This document shows positions 2,051 to 48,921 of a stretch of DNA of 64,000 nt, in pieces. The notes beneath the pieces were generated by a model. That model was not told the DNA's origin, made no database searches, and saw only the letters and a list, made by a program, of their open reading frames with translations. Source of the stretch: Tequatrovirus LF73P3. The position numbers were made by a program, and so were the translations under genes. The stretch lies in sequence record OZ035756.1; one strand, written 5' to 3'. The first letter of the stretch is position 1; each line of letters begins with the position of its first letter.

Positions 2051-2085
2051 CATTTCATTCTCCAAATCCGTATCAGTTGATAGTT

Positions 2086-2120
2086 GTATAGTACCATGGA
2101 AGAACAGGGATGTAAACAGT
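2086..2120 (-). promoter_or_regulatory. T4-type early (sigma70) promoter
   Basis: Minus strand reads GTTTAC-18 nt-TACTAT with an A/T-rich upstream tract; same ~60-bp element recurs at >10 sites in the window. Confidence 0.6.
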
Positions 2121-2200
2121 TTTGTGAAAAAATTTTTAATGAATTTACAGGACCTAGAATCATCTATTTTTCCTAAGTATAGATTTATATTACTTGTATG

Positions 2201-25443: not shown

Positions 25444-25971
25444 TTATGCGAGTACCGTCTTTAACCGTTCTTCAAACTTCCGAAGAGTATTTTGGCGTTC
25501 AGCTCTTTGCTTTTTGTAAGTTTCAATACGCTCTGAAATGAGAGAATATCGTTCATTTATTGATTCTTTCATAAAATCAGGAATTTCACGAGAAGCTTTA
25601 ATCTCGTCAAATTTATCAATAACAGCTTGCTCTTCAGCAATTAAGTTATCATACATTAAAATATCTTTCTTGATGAACTCAATATCTTCTTGAGTTACAC
25701 GAGATAATTTAGATGCTTTATCCTTTTTGTACTGTTCATTAGTATCACGAGACCAGTGTAATGTACGATTTTTATTCGTATTTTTGTAAATTTCTACAAT
25801 ACCGATCTCATCAATAATAACGATCCAATTCCAACGGGATTTGTAAATTTGTCCTCCATCAACAGTGATTTCACCTCCGATTGAGATGTCGTTAAAGAAC
25901 TTGCTTTGTGCTTCAGATTTAAATTTACCATCGTTGTAATTTACCAAGTTGAAAATATCTTTAGCGTTCAT
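25444..25971 (-). CDS. Hypothetical protein (175 aa)
   Basis: ORF directly downstream of early promoter at ~26000. Confidence 0.45.
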   Translation of the reverse strand: MNAKDIFNLVNYNDGKFKSEAQSKFFNDISIGGEITVDGGQIYKSRWNWIVIIDEIGIVEIYKNTNKNRTLHWSRDTNEQYKKDKASKLSRVTQEDIEFIKKDILMYDNLIAEEQAVIDKFDEIKASREIPDFMKESINERYSLISERIETYKKQRAERQNTLRKFEERLKTVLA

Positions 25972-25997
25972 TTTCTGTTCCTCCGTAGTTGATAGTT

Positions 25998-26032
25998 GTA
26001 TAGTACCACAGAGGAACAGTCTTGTAAACCAC
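25998..26032 (-). promoter_or_regulatory. T4-type early promoter
   Basis: Minus strand GTTTAC-18 nt-TACTAT. Confidence 0.6.
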
Positions 26033-27738: not shown

Positions 27739-27929
27739 TGATTCTGCTCCAAATATGTTTCTATAATTTTCTGAGCGAGATAAACTGCGTTATCTTCAGT
27801 TGCATCTTCTAAGAAATTTTCAAAATAAGCTGAAATTTCTTCTGTGTCAATCAACTTTTTTACTTCAATTAACGTAGTTTTCATTTTATTCCCCCAAATC
27901 CGTATCAGTTGATAGTTGTATAGTACCAC
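27735..27929 (-). CDS. Hypothetical acidic protein (64 aa)
   Basis: ORF immediately downstream of early promoter at ~27930. Confidence 0.4.
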   Translation of the reverse strand: MVLYNYQLIRIWGNKMKTTLIEVKKLIDTEEISAYFENFLEDATEDNAVYLAQKIIETYLEQNQ

Positions 27930-27951
27930 AGTATGCTTTGGTTGTAAACCG
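27919..27951 (-). promoter_or_regulatory. T4-type early promoter
   Basis: Minus strand GTTTAC-18 nt-TACTAT. Confidence 0.6.
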
Positions 27952-27970
27952 TTTTGTGAAAAAAATTTTG

Positions 27971-27996
27971 AAATAAAAAAGGGGACCTTAGAGGTC
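27971..27996 (-). terminator. Intrinsic terminator
   Basis: Minus strand GGGGACC-UCUAA-GGUCCCC followed by UUUUUU. Confidence 0.7.
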
Positions 27997-28539: not shown

Positions 28540-28574
28540 TATATTATAATATGCTTTGCGGTAGAAGTAAACAA
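28540..28574 (-). promoter_or_regulatory. T4-type early promoter driving the ART-like gene
   Basis: Minus strand GTTTAC-17 nt-TTATAAT. Confidence 0.6.
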
Positions 28575-28600
28575 CTTTGTGAAAAAATTTTGAAATAAAA

Positions 28601-38550: not shown

Positions 38551-39129
38551 TTAATTACCACGGGCTGCATTAGCAACGGCGTAAGCATACTGAACATTAG
38601 CGTCTTTAAACGTACCTTTAGAGGTATCTATTTCTGCCTTAAAGCCGCCTTTAGCCATAACATCAGCAAATTCTTTACGGAAAGCCATTGCATCAAGACC
38701 TTTCCATGATGATTTATGCTTGGCAAATTCAAGACCGGCGAAGTTGACAGCCTTAGCCAATTTATTGTCAATAACCCATTTACCAGCTTTAGGCACAAAC
38801 ACCGGGCCTTTCTGCTTAGAGAATAGTTTTAAATTCCAGCGACGAAGGTCACTGTCAGCTTTAACAAAAGCTGCGTCCAAGTTACTAGCAACAACATCTT
38901 GAATATGGCCAAATTTAAGCCCATCAACTTCAATATTTAGATCGGTACGCCAGCGAAGTCCTTCCCAAGCGAAGGCTTTAAAATCAGAAGCTTTTGTGGC
39001 TAGATATCGTTCAAGTGGAGCAGTTTTAGGGTCAAAGCCGTTTCCGCCACGATAAGTCCACTCGTCCTTATTAATGCCTTGAGCTTTTCCTGCAAAGGCC
39101 TCGGCGATAAATTCTTTATACGTTTTCAT
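38551..39129 (-). CDS. Internal-protein-like head protein with capsid targeting sequence (IPIII-sized, 192 aa)
   Basis: N-terminus MKTYKEFIAE matches the T4 internal-protein targeting consensus, with prohead protease-type site after FIAE. Confidence 0.6.
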   Translation of the reverse strand: MKTYKEFIAEAFAGKAQGINKDEWTYRGGNGFDPKTAPLERYLATKASDFKAFAWEGLRWRTDLNIEVDGLKFGHIQDVVASNLDAAFVKADSDLRRWNLKLFSKQKGPVFVPKAGKWVIDNKLAKAVNFAGLEFAKHKSSWKGLDAMAFRKEFADVMAKGGFKAEIDTSKGTFKDANVQYAYAVANAARGN

Positions 39130-39458: not shown

Positions 39459-39872
39459 TTAGTAAATTGATTTACCATAGTATTTGTACCAAGTAGGACG
39501 TTGAGCAATTTTTTCATCTAAGCGTGCTTGACTTATCGCAATGGACGCTTCGTCCGGGACATAATTATTACGAAATTCGGCAGGGATGTCGGAAATATCC
39601 TGGACAGTCGTGTCCTTGATTTTGAAACCACGTTTCAAGCATTCAGCGATTAGCTCGATTTGACGTAAACGTAAAAATTCGAGCTTGTCGTAAAAGAATG
39701 TTACGTGACCTGTGCCTAATATAAATGTTGGAGAGATTTTAAAATCCTTTACACATTTACCGTTTTGAACATGTTTACGGACTGCACCAAATACGCGTGG
39801 TAATTCACGATACTCTGCCATAAGATGTTGGTCGGTCAGTTCAGAAACAAGTGTTAAATTGATACGGGTCAT
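39459..39872 (-). CDS. denV: Endonuclease V (pyrimidine-dimer DNA glycosylase)
   Basis: [12 protein letters not shown]...[12 protein letters not shown]... closely matches T4 DenV as I recall it; start at MTRINL. Confidence 0.93.
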
Positions 39873-39898
39873 AATTTCCTCCAAGTAGTTGATGAATG

Positions 39899-39930: not shown

Positions 39931-39931
<1 letters not shown>
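39899..39931 (-). promoter_or_regulatory. T4-type early promoter upstream of denV
   Basis: Minus strand GTTTAC-18 nt-TACTAT. Confidence 0.55.
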
Positions 39932-40733
<802 letters not shown>

Positions 40734-44251: not shown

Positions 44252-44527
44252 TTATTTCATATTATTGAAATATTCTTCTGCGATTTCGTCGTTATCGTGG
44301 TAAACTTTAGAAGACAGTTTAACATAACCTTCTGCCGTGAACATATTAATCACAACCTTTACAGTATACCACTGACCGTCTTCATTACCCATTACTGCGT
44401 AAGTTTCAAACATCGGATGATCAGGACCGATAACTTTAATATCATTCACTGTACGACCGAAATCTTCTGAAACACATTTCATAAAGAAGTTGAACAGTTC
44501 GCCGTAATTATCCATTTTATTCTCCAA
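44252..44527 (-). CDS. Hypothetical protein (91 aa)
   Basis: ORF directly downstream of early promoter at ~44570. Confidence 0.45.
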   Translation of the reverse strand: MENKMDNYGELFNFFMKCVSEDFGRTVNDIKVIGPDHPMFETYAVMGNEDGQWYTVKVVINMFTAEGYVKLSSKVYHDNDEIAEEYFNNMK

Positions 44528-44557
44528 GTTGTTTTCTGTATCAGTAGTTGATAGTTG

Positions 44558-44590
44558 TATAGTACCATGGAAGAACAGGGATGTAAACCA
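44558..44590 (-). promoter_or_regulatory. T4-type early promoter
   Basis: Minus strand GTTTAC-18 nt-TACTAT; near-identical to the element at ~2090. Confidence 0.6.
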
Positions 44591-44715
44591 TTTTGTGAAA
44601 AAAATTTTTAAAAGTTTTAGGGAATTCTAGGGAGGGAAGGGGCGATTAAAGGATAGGATAATATATTATAAAGGGTAGAAACTAAATGATGCCTAGAGAG
44701 GTCCAGAAAGGTCTA

Positions 44716-44740
44716 GATACCAAAAAGCCCTATCATTTAG
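44716..44740 (-). terminator. Intrinsic terminator downstream of the 187-aa targeting-sequence gene
   Basis: Minus strand CCCUAUC-UAAAU-GAUAGGG followed by CUUUUU. Confidence 0.6.
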
Positions 44741-44754
44741 ATAGGGATTTAAAA

Positions 44755-45318
44755 TTATTTATCTAGTTTAGTTATTATAGCTTCGGCAGCAGCTTTTAGC
44801 TTAGATGCGGTGTTAATACGATTTTTAATTTCAGTATACGCATCGCCAAGAACGTCGAGGCTATCAGAATAAACACTTACACTATTGCGTTCGCTATTTG
44901 AAATAGAACCTTTAGTTTTACGATCAAAATCAGTGTACACGTCTTGAAGATCACGGGCTGCCTTCTTTGCATCATCCAATGCATCAAGAGCTTTATTCAA
45001 AGCATTAACGTATTTTTTAGTGTCGAACATATTCTTAGAAATTTTAACAGGTGCACGTTCAGGAGTAGCTAAGGCAGATTTAGGAACCTGAGCGCCTGAT
45101 GCTAATTTCTTAGAAATTTTGAAAAATGCTTTATTGAATTTATTTTCTTGACTCATCGTAAAAGAACTATTATCAATGTTATACATTTCAATAGCTTTAG
45201 CTTTCCACTTAAGAAAATCGCCACGGTCTTTTGGGTCCAATTGGAAGAATACTTTAGTAAGATCTGCTTCAGATGGTAATTTTGCTGCTTCGGTTAAAAA
45301 TTCGGCATAGGTTTTCAT
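44755..45318 (-). CDS. Additional internal-protein-like gene with capsid targeting sequence (187 aa)
   Basis: N-terminus MKTYAEFLTE|AAK carries the targeting consensus and a protease-type LTE site; bracketed by terminators at ~45412 and ~44716. Confidence 0.55.
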   Translation of the reverse strand: MKTYAEFLTEAAKLPSEADLTKVFFQLDPKDRGDFLKWKAKAIEMYNIDNSSFTMSQENKFNKAFFKISKKLASGAQVPKSALATPERAPVKISKNMFDTKKYVNALNKALDALDDAKKAARDLQDVYTDFDRKTKGSISNSERNSVSVYSDSLDVLGDAYTEIKNRINTASKLKAAAEAIITKLDK

Positions 45319-45411
45319 TTAAAATCCTTGAAATAATTTATCGGTTGGTTATTAATTATTTATTACTTTGTTATTATCCGTAACAGCATTCTCTATGTGA
45401 TTCAAACTAAA

Positions 45412-45440
45412 AAGCCCCAACCTTTCGGTCGGGGCTAAGC
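45412..45440 (-). terminator. Intrinsic terminator downstream of the stable-RNA region
   Basis: Minus strand CCCCGACC-GAAA-GGUUGGGG followed by CUUUUU. Confidence 0.7.
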
Positions 45441-45742
45441 CTTGCGGCAACCTTGTCGGGGTTCCACCTGCTAAGGCAAGTGTTTGTACGAAACGCCGGG
45501 ATTCGAACCCGGTTATTAAGCAGTTGACGCTACTCAATATTTTTAAAAGGCCATATCTCGACCATATCCGAACGTTCCGTCAAAAACGCTACTCGGCTTA
45601 CGGCAAAGATATTTCCTCGAATCGATAATTCGATGCGCCGTTTCTGCTGTGATAGTAAAGAATCAGAACACAGTAAAACTGTGGGAGAAACTATACTCCA
45701 GGGAACATCAGTCCGACGACTTACCGGTAGCGACCCGGTTTC
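45441..45742 (-). ncRNA. Structured small stable RNA region (candidate equivalents of T4 species 1/species 2 RNAs, rnaC/rnaD)
   Basis: No convincing ORF on the transcribed strand; tRNA-like T-arm (CCGGGTTCGAATCCCGG), several hairpins, repeated GAGTAGCGT motif; lies downstream of tRNA-Arg as in T4. Confidence 0.4.
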
Positions 45743-46093
45743 TTAATATTCTTTTAAAGCATCAATCTGTTCACGACGTTTACGCCATAAATCAATTGCT
45801 TCATACGCAGATTCAGCATTTCGAATTGGACGGCATTTATATAAAGACTTGTGATTTTGATATTGTGTAGATAATGGAATTTTATCTAAAAGGTCTTTAC
45901 GTTCAAAGTATTCGTAACCATCTAAACCAAATGAACGATTTTTGAGAAATTGCCAATGACCATATTCATTTTCGACATAAACATAATCCGCGTGTTGATA
46001 AAGCAAATTAATTACACGTTCAGAAATAACAGTGTCATTGTGATTAAAATAAAATGTTAAATCATGAACTACTAAATAAACATTACCTTTCAT
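45743..46093 (-). CDS. Hypothetical protein (116 aa) between tRNA-Arg and the stable-RNA region
   Basis: Good RBS (GAGGAAAAT-ATG) 17 nt downstream of tRNA-Arg 3' end. Confidence 0.5.
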   Translation of the reverse strand: MKGNVYLVVHDLTFYFNHNDTVISERVINLLYQHADYVYVENEYGHWQFLKNRSFGLDGYEYFERKDLLDKIPLSTQYQNHKSLYKCRPIRNAESAYEAIDLWRKRREQIDALKEY

Positions 46094-46188: not shown

Positions 46189-46854
46189 TTAAAATTTCAT
46201 TTTTCGACCTTTAAACCATCCTTCTGGAATTGGGTCAGTTTTCTTAATACGTTTAGAAACTTTTTCATCTAATGAATGAATCCACATCATACCAAATTGG
46301 GAATTCTTTTCACCTTTTTGGTGATTATTTTTAGCGTGAATTTCTTTCATTTTATTAATAGTTTCAAGAGTATGATGCTTATTTAAAAATCGGCTATTAT
46401 TTAAAAATTTTTCTTTGTATTCAGGAGTTGACCACAAACGTTTAAATACATTTGAACCATTTTTACGATATTTTTCTTGAAGTAAAATATCATTTTTAAA
46501 ACGTGACTTAAACGATTTAGCTCCTTTTAAACTAGCGTCTTTCTTCTGATTTAGCATCTCAGGAATATTTATATGATCCCATCCACCTTCACCGCCAAGT
46601 TTTAAATTATACACATCAGGTCTATTTAAAAACTCTTCTGTGACAATATTTTTCTCGGCTTCAAGCATAGATTCTTTATCGTCAAAATATTCTAATATTT
46701 CTTTAGAAAAATTTTCTATACCATACCTGTCTTGGGCTCTTTTTAATAATTTACCAGAACCCATATATCCATCATCTAAATTTTCGGTAGAATGCACACC
46801 AATATAAATTTTATTATTAATTTTATTTGTTATTTTATAAAGATAAAAATGCAT
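46189..46854 (-). CDS. segB: GIY-YIG homing endonuclease SegB
   Basis: GIY-YIG module (FYLYKITN...KIYIGVH); lies between tRNA-Arg and the main tRNA cluster as T4 segB does; start set at MHFYLYK to avoid overlapping the adjacent tRNA. Confidence 0.75.
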   Translation of the reverse strand: MHFYLYKITNKINNKIYIGVHSTENLDDGYMGSGKLLKRAQDRYGIENFSKEILEYFDDKESMLEAEKNIVTEEFLNRPDVYNLKLGGEGGWDHINIPEMLNQKKDASLKGAKSFKSRFKNDILLQEKYRKNGSNVFKRLWSTPEYKEKFLNNSRFLNKHHTLETINKMKEIHAKNNHQKGEKNSQFGMMWIHSLDEKVSKRIKKTDPIPEGWFKGRKMKF

Positions 46855-46900
46855 ATCAGTCCCTAATAAAGAACTGAGCGTCTCACGACGAGTCATAAAT

Positions 46901-46987
46901 TGGTGGGGAGTGATGGAGTCGAACCACCCGAGTCGCAATGACAATGGATTTACAGTCCACACCGCTACCTCTACGGGATAACTCCCC
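46901..46987 (-). tRNA. Type II tRNA-like gene, anticodon apparently GUA (Tyr)
   Basis: Manual fold: perfect acceptor GGGGAGU/ACUCCCC, anticodon loop CUGUAAA, long variable arm resembling E. coli tRNA-Tyr, T-arm GGUUCGACUCC, encoded CCA; D-arm pairing ambiguous. Confidence 0.55.
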
Positions 46988-48612: not shown

Positions 48613-48921
48613 CTATTTTATTCCGCGTGATGCAATTGTGTTCTGCCGTTTAACACCAGTTTGTTTAAAGTCATGATTGTCGATTTGATCGGTACGAGCA
48701 ACTCCGAATGATGATTTGATCTTAGCTTTAGATCCTTTAGTTATAGAAATAAACATCTCGGAAGCCCCTTTCTTAAAGTCCGAAGCGATTACTTCAACGC
48801 CGTTCTTAGCAAGTGACTTCAGAATTGCCTCTGCATACTCATCGTCAAGACTCGTCTGAGTATTAATAACGAATGTCTTTGGCGCAGCCGCTTCATTGAT
48901 AAATTCTTTAAATGTTTTCAT
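48613..48921 (-). CDS. Internal-protein-like head protein with capsid targeting sequence (102 aa; ipI position upstream of 57B)
   Basis: N-terminus MKTFKEFINE|AAA (targeting consensus); located where T4 ipI sits. Confidence 0.55.
   Translation of the reverse strand: MKTFKEFINEAAAPKTFVINTQTSLDDEYAEAILKSLAKNGVEVIASDFKKGASEMFISITKGSKAKIKSSFGVARTDQIDNHDFKQTGVKRQNTIASRGIK

Follow-up and report, generated by a model that had tools for sequence, protein, structure and literature searches.

A minus-strand open reading frame (ORF) of Tequatrovirus LF73P3, 187 amino acids (aa) long, probably encodes a T-even internal protein (Ip) that had so far gone unannotated; the protein would be injected into the host and would most likely block a nuclease-type defense there. 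The ORF occupies positions 44755..45318 (stop codon included) of the 64,000-nucleotide stretch of sequence record OZ035756.1 that we analyzed, hereafter called the window. DNA of the target region found its top matches in many Escherichia, Shigella, and Yersinia phages at 96–98% identity, and the window is that of a T4-like phage (Tequatrovirus). An initial annotation of this DNA had placed a 187-aa ORF beginning MKTYAEFLTE|AAK at these coordinates, between e.8-like genes and the stable-RNA/tRNA region, and had called it an extra gene relative to T4. The sequence and its translation confirm the ORF and its N-terminus (MKTYAEFLTEAAK), and the interval between e.8 and rnaC is indeed geneless in T4; the site is empty in T2L as well. 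The parts of our proposal differ in strength. Packaging and processing of the protein are highly probable. By analogy with other Ips, its service as an anti-defense effector has about an even chance of being correct, and its action on a GmrSD-type enzyme is a tentative suggestion that leans toward the unlikely.

Codons 1–10 (45289..45318, minus strand) specify the putative capsid-targeting leader MKTYAEFLTE, which is identical to the leader of T4 IPII and IPIII (MKTYQEFIAE|A) at 7 of 10 positions and has a conservative I-to-L change at another. The (L/I)-x-E|A cleavage site is kept, with the cut by the prohead protease gp21 predicted after Glu10 (L-T-E|A), and L8-T9-E10|A11 is the sole [LI]xE[AGS] site in the protein. 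The T4-type targeting sequence and protease site claimed for this N-terminus are thus present, as the initial annotation had it. We ran the leader pattern MK[ST][YF].[ED][FY][LIV].E on the six-frame translation of the window, with 100 shuffled sequences as the control. The window gave four matches, each at the start of a minus-strand ORF of at least 93 aa, and the shuffles gave none. The four ORFs are the IPIII homolog (38551..39129), a 93-aa ORF (39931..40212), the 187-aa ORF, and a 102-aa ORF at the ipI locus (48613..48921). The other three belong to PHROG 5341, 3499, and 2667, respectively, all annotated as internal head or virion proteins; the 187-aa ORF belongs to PHROG 2280, annotated as "unknown function".

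The predicted mature product of 177 aa has a mass of 19.7 kDa and is basic (32 K+R versus 24 D+E), its pI of 9.46 resembling that of the IPIII homolog of the window (9.65). The gene is maintained as a coding sequence: codon differences, counted as synonymous to non-synonymous, were 13:0 against SP1, 15:3 against RB14, and 13:1 against CrRp10. Because the differences from these three homologs are overwhelmingly synonymous, codon comparison shows that the ORF is under purifying selection. An initial AlphaFold model made with near-identical homologs only was poor (pLDDT 57.7), whereas a diverse alignment including distant homologs raised the pLDDT to 78.5. In the latter model, the leader is followed by an N-domain of four helices (residues 13–75), a disordered linker containing Pro, Ala, and Lys (residues 76–100), and a confidently predicted three-helix C-terminal bundle (residues 101–186).

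The 187-aa protein matches PHROG 2280 with E = 2.8e-53, its residues 1–181 aligning with positions 1–178 of the 178-position profile. An exhaustive HMMER search with this protein found very few relatives beyond a near-identical set; a search seeded with one distant match, P0013, recovered a small and diverse set with 19–30% identity. P0013 and a protein of Enterobacter phage CIP9 match PHROG 2280 too. The alignment of these distant relatives falls into four parts, namely, the leader, a conserved helical N-domain, a Pro/Ala/Lys-rich linker of variable length, and a C-terminal helical domain of at least two types. The leader, M-x-x-F-x-(E/Q/D)-(F/I)-(L/I)-x-E followed by S, A, or T, is kept in relatives from other genera of Tevenvirinae while the rest diverges. 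In CIP9 (Kanagawavirus) and in a 74-kb metagenomic T4-like contig, the tRNA cluster precedes the family copy. The copy of the contig has e.x-like genes behind it and so corresponds in relative position to the 187-aa gene. Beyond this set, five tandem repeats of the 869-aa protein P0015 weakly match residues 3–66 of the 187-aa protein (E = 8e-4; compare ...TKEFLQKHPDIDKNDFSKWVNNEINAY...), a hint that proteins from beyond the T4-like phages may also contain the conserved N-domain of this family.

A second member of PHROG 2280, a 157-aa protein, occurs at the same genomic site in other phages (fD1 g140, AR1 ar1_137, CrRp10 gp090). It begins MKSYTQFLNE|AVLNE|A and matches the PHROG profile over its full length (E = 4.2e-60). 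BLASTP detected only the leader in common between the 157-aa and 187-aa proteins, and hhalign aligned their C-terminal helical domains (probability 76%, E = 2e-5). From this likeness in sequence, the two proteins are to be regarded as diverged paralogs. Their genes share, besides the PHROG and the C-terminal domain, the insertion site and a promoter–gene–terminator build. T-even phages have two unrelated 157-aa genes that bear a leader of this kind and that their equal size makes easy to mistake for each other: g140 of Yersinia phage fD1 (4943..5416, PHROG 2280, between rnaC and e.8) and IpIV of Yersinia phage PST (427..900, PHROG 3155, at the ipII position). We considered whether PST IpIV is the 157-aa allele and rejected this, as it is unrelated and belongs to a different PHROG.

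The gene lies within a 687-bp insert that T4 lacks (44722..45408, minus strand). We set its boundaries by a four-way alignment of T4 (empty site), AR1 (157-aa cassette), the window, and CrRp10 (both cassettes), and by mapping T4 features onto the window with BLAST. The insert comprises a late-promoter-like motif, a Shine–Dalgarno sequence, the 187-aa ORF, and a terminator of its own, and it starts directly past the T-run of the intrinsic terminator that ends the tRNA/rnaD/rnaC unit. This upstream boundary element (45409..45436, minus strand) has a 10-pair stem with seven GC pairs (45436..45413) and a T-run (45413..45409); its region is 95% identical to T4 intergenic positions 1–81, where the same sequence is the single terminator of T4. 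At the downstream junction, the intrinsic terminator of the cassette (44722..44746, minus strand) forms a 7-pair stem (44746..44728) followed by CTTTTT. Its 3′ half, GGGCTTTTT, is homologous to the rnaC-operon terminator and repeats the junction sequence. Both junctions carry this 9-nt repeat, making the boundaries ambiguous by 9 nt. The region holds four terminator-like sites, compared with 1.2 ± 1.3 in shuffled sequences. The flanking terminators claimed in the initial annotation therefore both exist on the minus strand, and the description of an insulated cassette is right as far as a self-contained unit between terminators is concerned; its extent had to be corrected from 44611..45440 to 44722..45408.

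Upstream of the gene, the motif AATAAATA (45357..45364, minus strand) starts 46 nt from the ATG and differs by one mismatch from the T4 late promoter TATAAATA. We infer that it is a putative gp55-dependent late promoter with a tolerated change of the first base. Every family member examined lies past the tRNA cluster and has NATAAATA at 35–48 nt upstream of the start codon, in the variants TATAAATA, AATAAATA, GATAAATA, and CATAAATA. In the metagenomic copy and in the 157-aa type, NATAAATA stands immediately after a terminator hairpin. A Shine–Dalgarno sequence, AAGGA (45325..45329, minus strand), can be read 6 nt 5′ of the ATG. By contrast, the cassette contains no T4 early-type promoter (GTTTAC...TAnnnT); the nearest one, at 44559..44587, belongs to the T4 backbone.

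The site between rnaC and e.8 is polymorphic across Tevenvirinae. We typed it by a joined-flank search, sorting the records that had both flanks by the span between them, and classified 36 of them, taken as a spread sample. Six records, T4, T2L, and GEP001 among them, had an empty site; 22 (for example, AR1 and slur14) had an insert of about 555 bp, and five (for example, IME340, Shfl2, and RB69) one of about 687 bp. The remaining three (CrRp10, EcNP1, and ECO07P5), with a span of about 1240 bp, held both cassettes. In CrRp10, the order is the rnaC terminator, the 157-aa cassette, a duplicated terminator, the 187-aa cassette with its own terminator, and e.8. In the ~555-bp insert, which encodes the 157-aa protein, a perfect TATAAATA comes right behind the rnaC-operon terminator, and that terminator is repeated exactly past the gene. 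Apparently, recombination between terminator sequences has added the two kinds of cassette to this one site, removed them from it, or stacked them there. Like other ip loci, it carries zero, one, or two cassettes.

The databases hold 164 phage records with the 187-aa type, compared with 512 for the 157-aa type, and protein identity within the former is at least 96% in 163 of the 164. The gene is thus neither rare nor new to the databases, and RB14 (ncORF136c) and RB69 are among its carriers; it is not a characterized T4 gene. Among the matches listed, the protein is always annotated as hypothetical. In RB69 (NC_004928, 7429..7991), which belongs to another genus (Mosigvirus), a frameshift splits the copy into ORF149c and ORF148c; apart from this, it agrees with the window protein at nearly every residue. 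The likeness suggests that the gene was transferred laterally not long ago and then decayed, unless the frameshift is a sequencing error.

From these features we infer that the gene is transcribed late and that its product is packaged, cleaved, and injected. Transcription would start at the late-type promoter AATAAATA of the gene, just downstream of the tRNA/rnaC-operon terminator. The 10-residue leader would direct the protein to the prohead core, and gp21 would cut it off after Glu10 (LTE|A), leaving AAKLPSEADLTK as the mature N-terminus. The basic 177-aa mature protein would remain in the head with the DNA and be injected along with it. In the new host, it would most likely block a nuclease-type defense, for which the diversified GmrSD enzymes that attack DNA containing glucosyl-hydroxymethylcytosine are the precedent. 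The 687-bp promoter–gene–terminator unit would be the form in which the gene travels.

The functional argument goes by class, because family, sequence, and fold searches gave no lead. Scans of the 187-aa protein with Pfam, NCBIfam, and PADLOC returned nothing above threshold, and a profile search of PDB sequences returned nothing below E = 0.1. Foldseek with the model found no match in PDB at E < 1 and, in BFVD, only the family itself and a protein of Yersinia phage fHe-Yen9-01. No likeness to Ip1, Ip2, or Ip3 beyond the leader was found in the PHROG, Pfam, NCBIfam, PDB, and fold searches. This does not speak against GmrSD inhibition, because Ip1–3 are mutually unrelated too: they share the leader only, and each acts as the inhibitor of its own particular GmrSD type IV restriction enzyme (Silas et al. 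2025, PMC12373910). The 187-aa protein has the sequence-level marks of the Ip class, that is, leader, cleavage site, dispensability, and hypervariability, and the pattern of presence, absence, and tandem paralogs fits an arms race like that of Ip1–3. An anti-restriction role is suggested by analogy with them. Candidate targets for such a role exist, since no inhibitor is known for five additional active GmrSD clusters (PMC12373910).

The comparison with individual Ips makes both the likeness and the differences explicit. Like T4 IPII and IPIII (Ip2 and Ip3), the 187-aa protein has a 10-residue leader, a gp21 (L/I)-x-E site, and a basic mature form, and its gene is dispensable and variably present; its size is near that of IPIII (193 aa in T4, 192 aa in the window). 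Unlike them, it lies at rnaC–e.8 rather than denV–e, belongs to a different PHROG, and shows no similarity to either past residue 11. Its late-type NATAAATA also sets it apart from the T4 ip genes and from the IPIII homolog and ipI-locus gene of the window, which have a GTTTAC-type early promoter. Ip2 inhibits GmrSD-ECOR21, Ip3 inhibits GmrSD-ECOR17, and IPI* (Ip1) inhibits GmrSD-CT596 (PMC12373910). IPI* serves as the model, being packaged, processed by protease, injected, and encoded, like the 187-aa gene, in a hypervariable region beside the tRNA cluster. T4 IPI differs in having a 19-residue leader (MKTFKEFTSTTTPVSTITE|A), a length of 95 aa, an unrelated sequence, and a locus that flanks the tRNA cluster on the opposite side.

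The other leader-bearing genes of the window offer some observations of their own. In the 93-aa ORF (39931..40212, minus strand; PHROG 3499, "internal head protein"), the leader ends |SILNE|A, giving two consecutive gp21-type sites. This ORF sits between e (40209..40697) and denV (39459..39884), and the order in the window is e – ip – denV – 108-aa ORF – ipIII, compared with denV – ipII – ipIII – e in T4; the window has no ipII homolog. The 102-aa ORF (48613..48921, minus strand; PHROG 2667) at the ipI locus beside 57B has the leader MKTFKEFINE|AAA and, upstream, a T4 early-type promoter (GTTTACA...TACTAT), in contrast to the late-type motif at the 187-aa gene.

Several points weigh against a packaged anti-defense protein. 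Ip4–10 hit no GmrSD target, indicating that the leader alone does not guarantee one (PMC12373910). In favor of packaging, the 157-aa paralog fD1 g140 was scored as particle-associated in purified fD1 virions (PMC8309999 Table S3), but the dataset is unspecific, with 113–137 of 277 phage proteins and 672 host proteins scored likewise (PMC8309999). Because about half of the phage proteins and so many host proteins were scored, these data indicate expression of the paralog more than its packaging. Virion mass spectrometry is absent from the papers on Sfk20 and fPS-65, two phages with the 187-aa gene. The promoter motif AATAAATA is an imperfect copy of TATAAATA, and inspection of the upstream region for a MotA-box/sigma-70 promoter yielded only a weak ATCACA-17-GATAAT match, on which we do not rely. 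The frameshift of the RB69 reference copy also means that the gene is dispensable at least there.

We weighed three other explanations. The protein could be an injected effector aimed at something other than type IV restriction, either another defense system or a host takeover function, which we consider distinctly unlikely. Alt, a packaged ADP-ribosyltransferase, is an example of an injected protein that acts in host takeover. The evidence for packaging serves this explanation equally well, the protein has no similarity to known GmrSD inhibitors, and its combination of a conserved N-domain with a variable C-domain is unlike the small, single-domain Ip1 and Ip2. However, Pfam, NCBIfam, PADLOC, and PDB profiles revealed no enzymatic domain or catalytic motif, and GmrSD inhibition is the only established function of leader-bearing Ips (PMC12373910).

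A quite improbable alternative is that the packaged protein has a physical role, binding or neutralizing DNA or helping or protecting its ejection, with a variable C-terminal domain that has no specific host target. The charge of the mature protein (pI and excess of K+R as given above) would suit such a role, and the long, low-complexity P/A/K linkers of the relatives recall histone-H1-like tails. The C-terminal domain is a plain helical bundle without an informative match, and Ip4–10 lack detectable GmrSD targets (PMC12373910). Yet the gene is dispensable, missing in T4 and T2L and frameshifted in RB69; presence/absence together with tandem paralogs is typical of arms-race accessory genes and not of a generic packaging component; and all three T4 Ips tested are specific inhibitors (PMC12373910). 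DNA charge neutralization is thus a weaker alternative than an arms-race role. Finally, it is very improbable that the product is an unpackaged cytoplasmic accessory protein whose leader-like N-terminus is a relic of recombination with an ip gene: the recombination-prone repeated terminators that bound the cassette and the imperfect promoter motif would fit, but the leader is the most conserved segment among members at 20–30% identity, which argues for selection on it, the position of NATAAATA is conserved, and the paralog was detected in fD1 virion preparations.

The preferred reading, that of an injected internal protein acting against a nuclease-type defense, can be extended to the locus as a whole. 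It is possible, although we would not count on it, that rnaC–e.8 is a third, unrecognized ip hotspot of Tevenvirinae, occupied by one ancient two-domain family (PHROG 2280) that combines the leader, the conserved helical N-domain, and the P/A/K linker with a rapidly evolving C-terminal helical bundle, and whose members are late-expressed, packaged, and injected, diversify by terminator-mediated stacking, and each act against a different host defense. If so, their targets may be active GmrSD clusters without a known Ip inhibitor or a defense class not yet linked to injected proteins. In the accessible literature, rnaC–e.8 is not described as an ip locus, the known sites being denV–e and tRNA.4–57B. 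We found no database record or paper that names the 187-aa gene an internal protein, the Ip4–Ip10 sequences (Repoila et al. 1994) lying outside the comparison, and no paper that mentions RB69ORF148c/149c, RB14ncORF136c, or Shfl2p135. The gene stands outside every named Ip family compared, among which the Ip4–Ip13 numbering of Repoila et al. 1994 was not included. Since the finding of variable ip genes by their leader is long established, the candidate would come as no surprise to those who know T4 well.

Among phage factors, injected internal proteins are the earliest to encounter the defenses of the host. A leader-bearing "hypothetical" family with 164 + 512 records, whose carriers include many therapy isolates, supplies candidates for GmrSD variants without a known inhibitor and could account in part for the different host ranges of T4-like phages that are nearly identical. 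In addition, the locus illustrates the gain, loss, and stacking of a promoter–gene–terminator unit through repeated terminators. It is similar in this respect to cassettes of an early promoter plus stem-loop (PeSL), in which gain, loss, and stacking in a hyperplastic region proceed via short regulatory repeats including a stem-loop terminator (Arbiol et al. 2010; Comeau et al. 2014, PMC4122927). It differs in that a terminator serves as the repeated element here and a late-type motif comes after it, where PeSLs join an early promoter to a stem-loop.

The initial annotation had also singled out an atypical G-rich spacer as part of the cassette. A G-rich stretch and an EcoRI site (44622) are present; the spacer is neither atypical for the locus nor part of the cassette, as 44516..44746 of the window is 90.5% identical to the T4 e.8–rnaC intergenic region. 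Positions 44516..44721 (minus strand) are a conserved T4 backbone intergenic region upstream of e.8 and outside the cassette, with a C-rich tract, an UP-like stretch, and the e.8 early promoter. The GC content of the spacer is 0.35 overall, equal to that of the window, and 0.42 in a 50-nt core, whose one notable property is the strand bias of 19 G against 2 C. Within the spacer lies the conserved e.8 early promoter, TTTACA-17-TACTAT (44587..44559), with its A/T-rich UP-like stretch. The predicted RNA fold of the spacer was not significant (z = +0.46), and Rfam gave no match. We therefore rejected the spacer as a special element. On the sense strand, the pyrimidine-rich tract CGCCCCTTCCCTCCC (~44620..44645) differs in sequence among T4, AR1, CrRp10, and the window yet stays rich in C throughout, and the 60–80 nt that flank it are nearly invariant. 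The segment with the e.8 early promoter and UP-like stretch (T4 intergenic 188–269) recurs in the window at 2075..2139, 25970..26029, 27907..27973, and 28564..28595 with 80–98% identity. These copies are dispersed early-promoter repeats, PeSL-like, of the kind proposed to drive modular shuffling.

The 187-aa ORF is flanked by the e.8 homolog (44252..44515) on one side and by rnaC (45487..45625) and rnaD (45634..45743) on the other. The minus-strand order is e, nudE, e.2–e.8, the 187-aa ORF, rnaC, rnaD, a 116-aa ORF, tRNA-Arg, a segB-like GIY-YIG gene, eight more tRNAs, the trna.x genes, the ipI-locus gene, and 57B. Identity to T4 is 98.6% for rnaC and 77.6% for the rnaD homolog. The 116-aa ORF (45743..46093, minus strand; PHROG 3355, unknown function) separates rnaD from tRNA-Arg, which in T4 are only 1 nt apart; RB69 (ORF150c) and AR1 (ar1_139) likewise carry a gene at this position. 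The segB-like GIY-YIG homing-endonuclease ORF (46189..46962, minus strand), as delimited by program with a GTG start, runs into tRNA-Tyr (46901..46987), and its real start is probably an internal ATG (MHFYLYKITN...).

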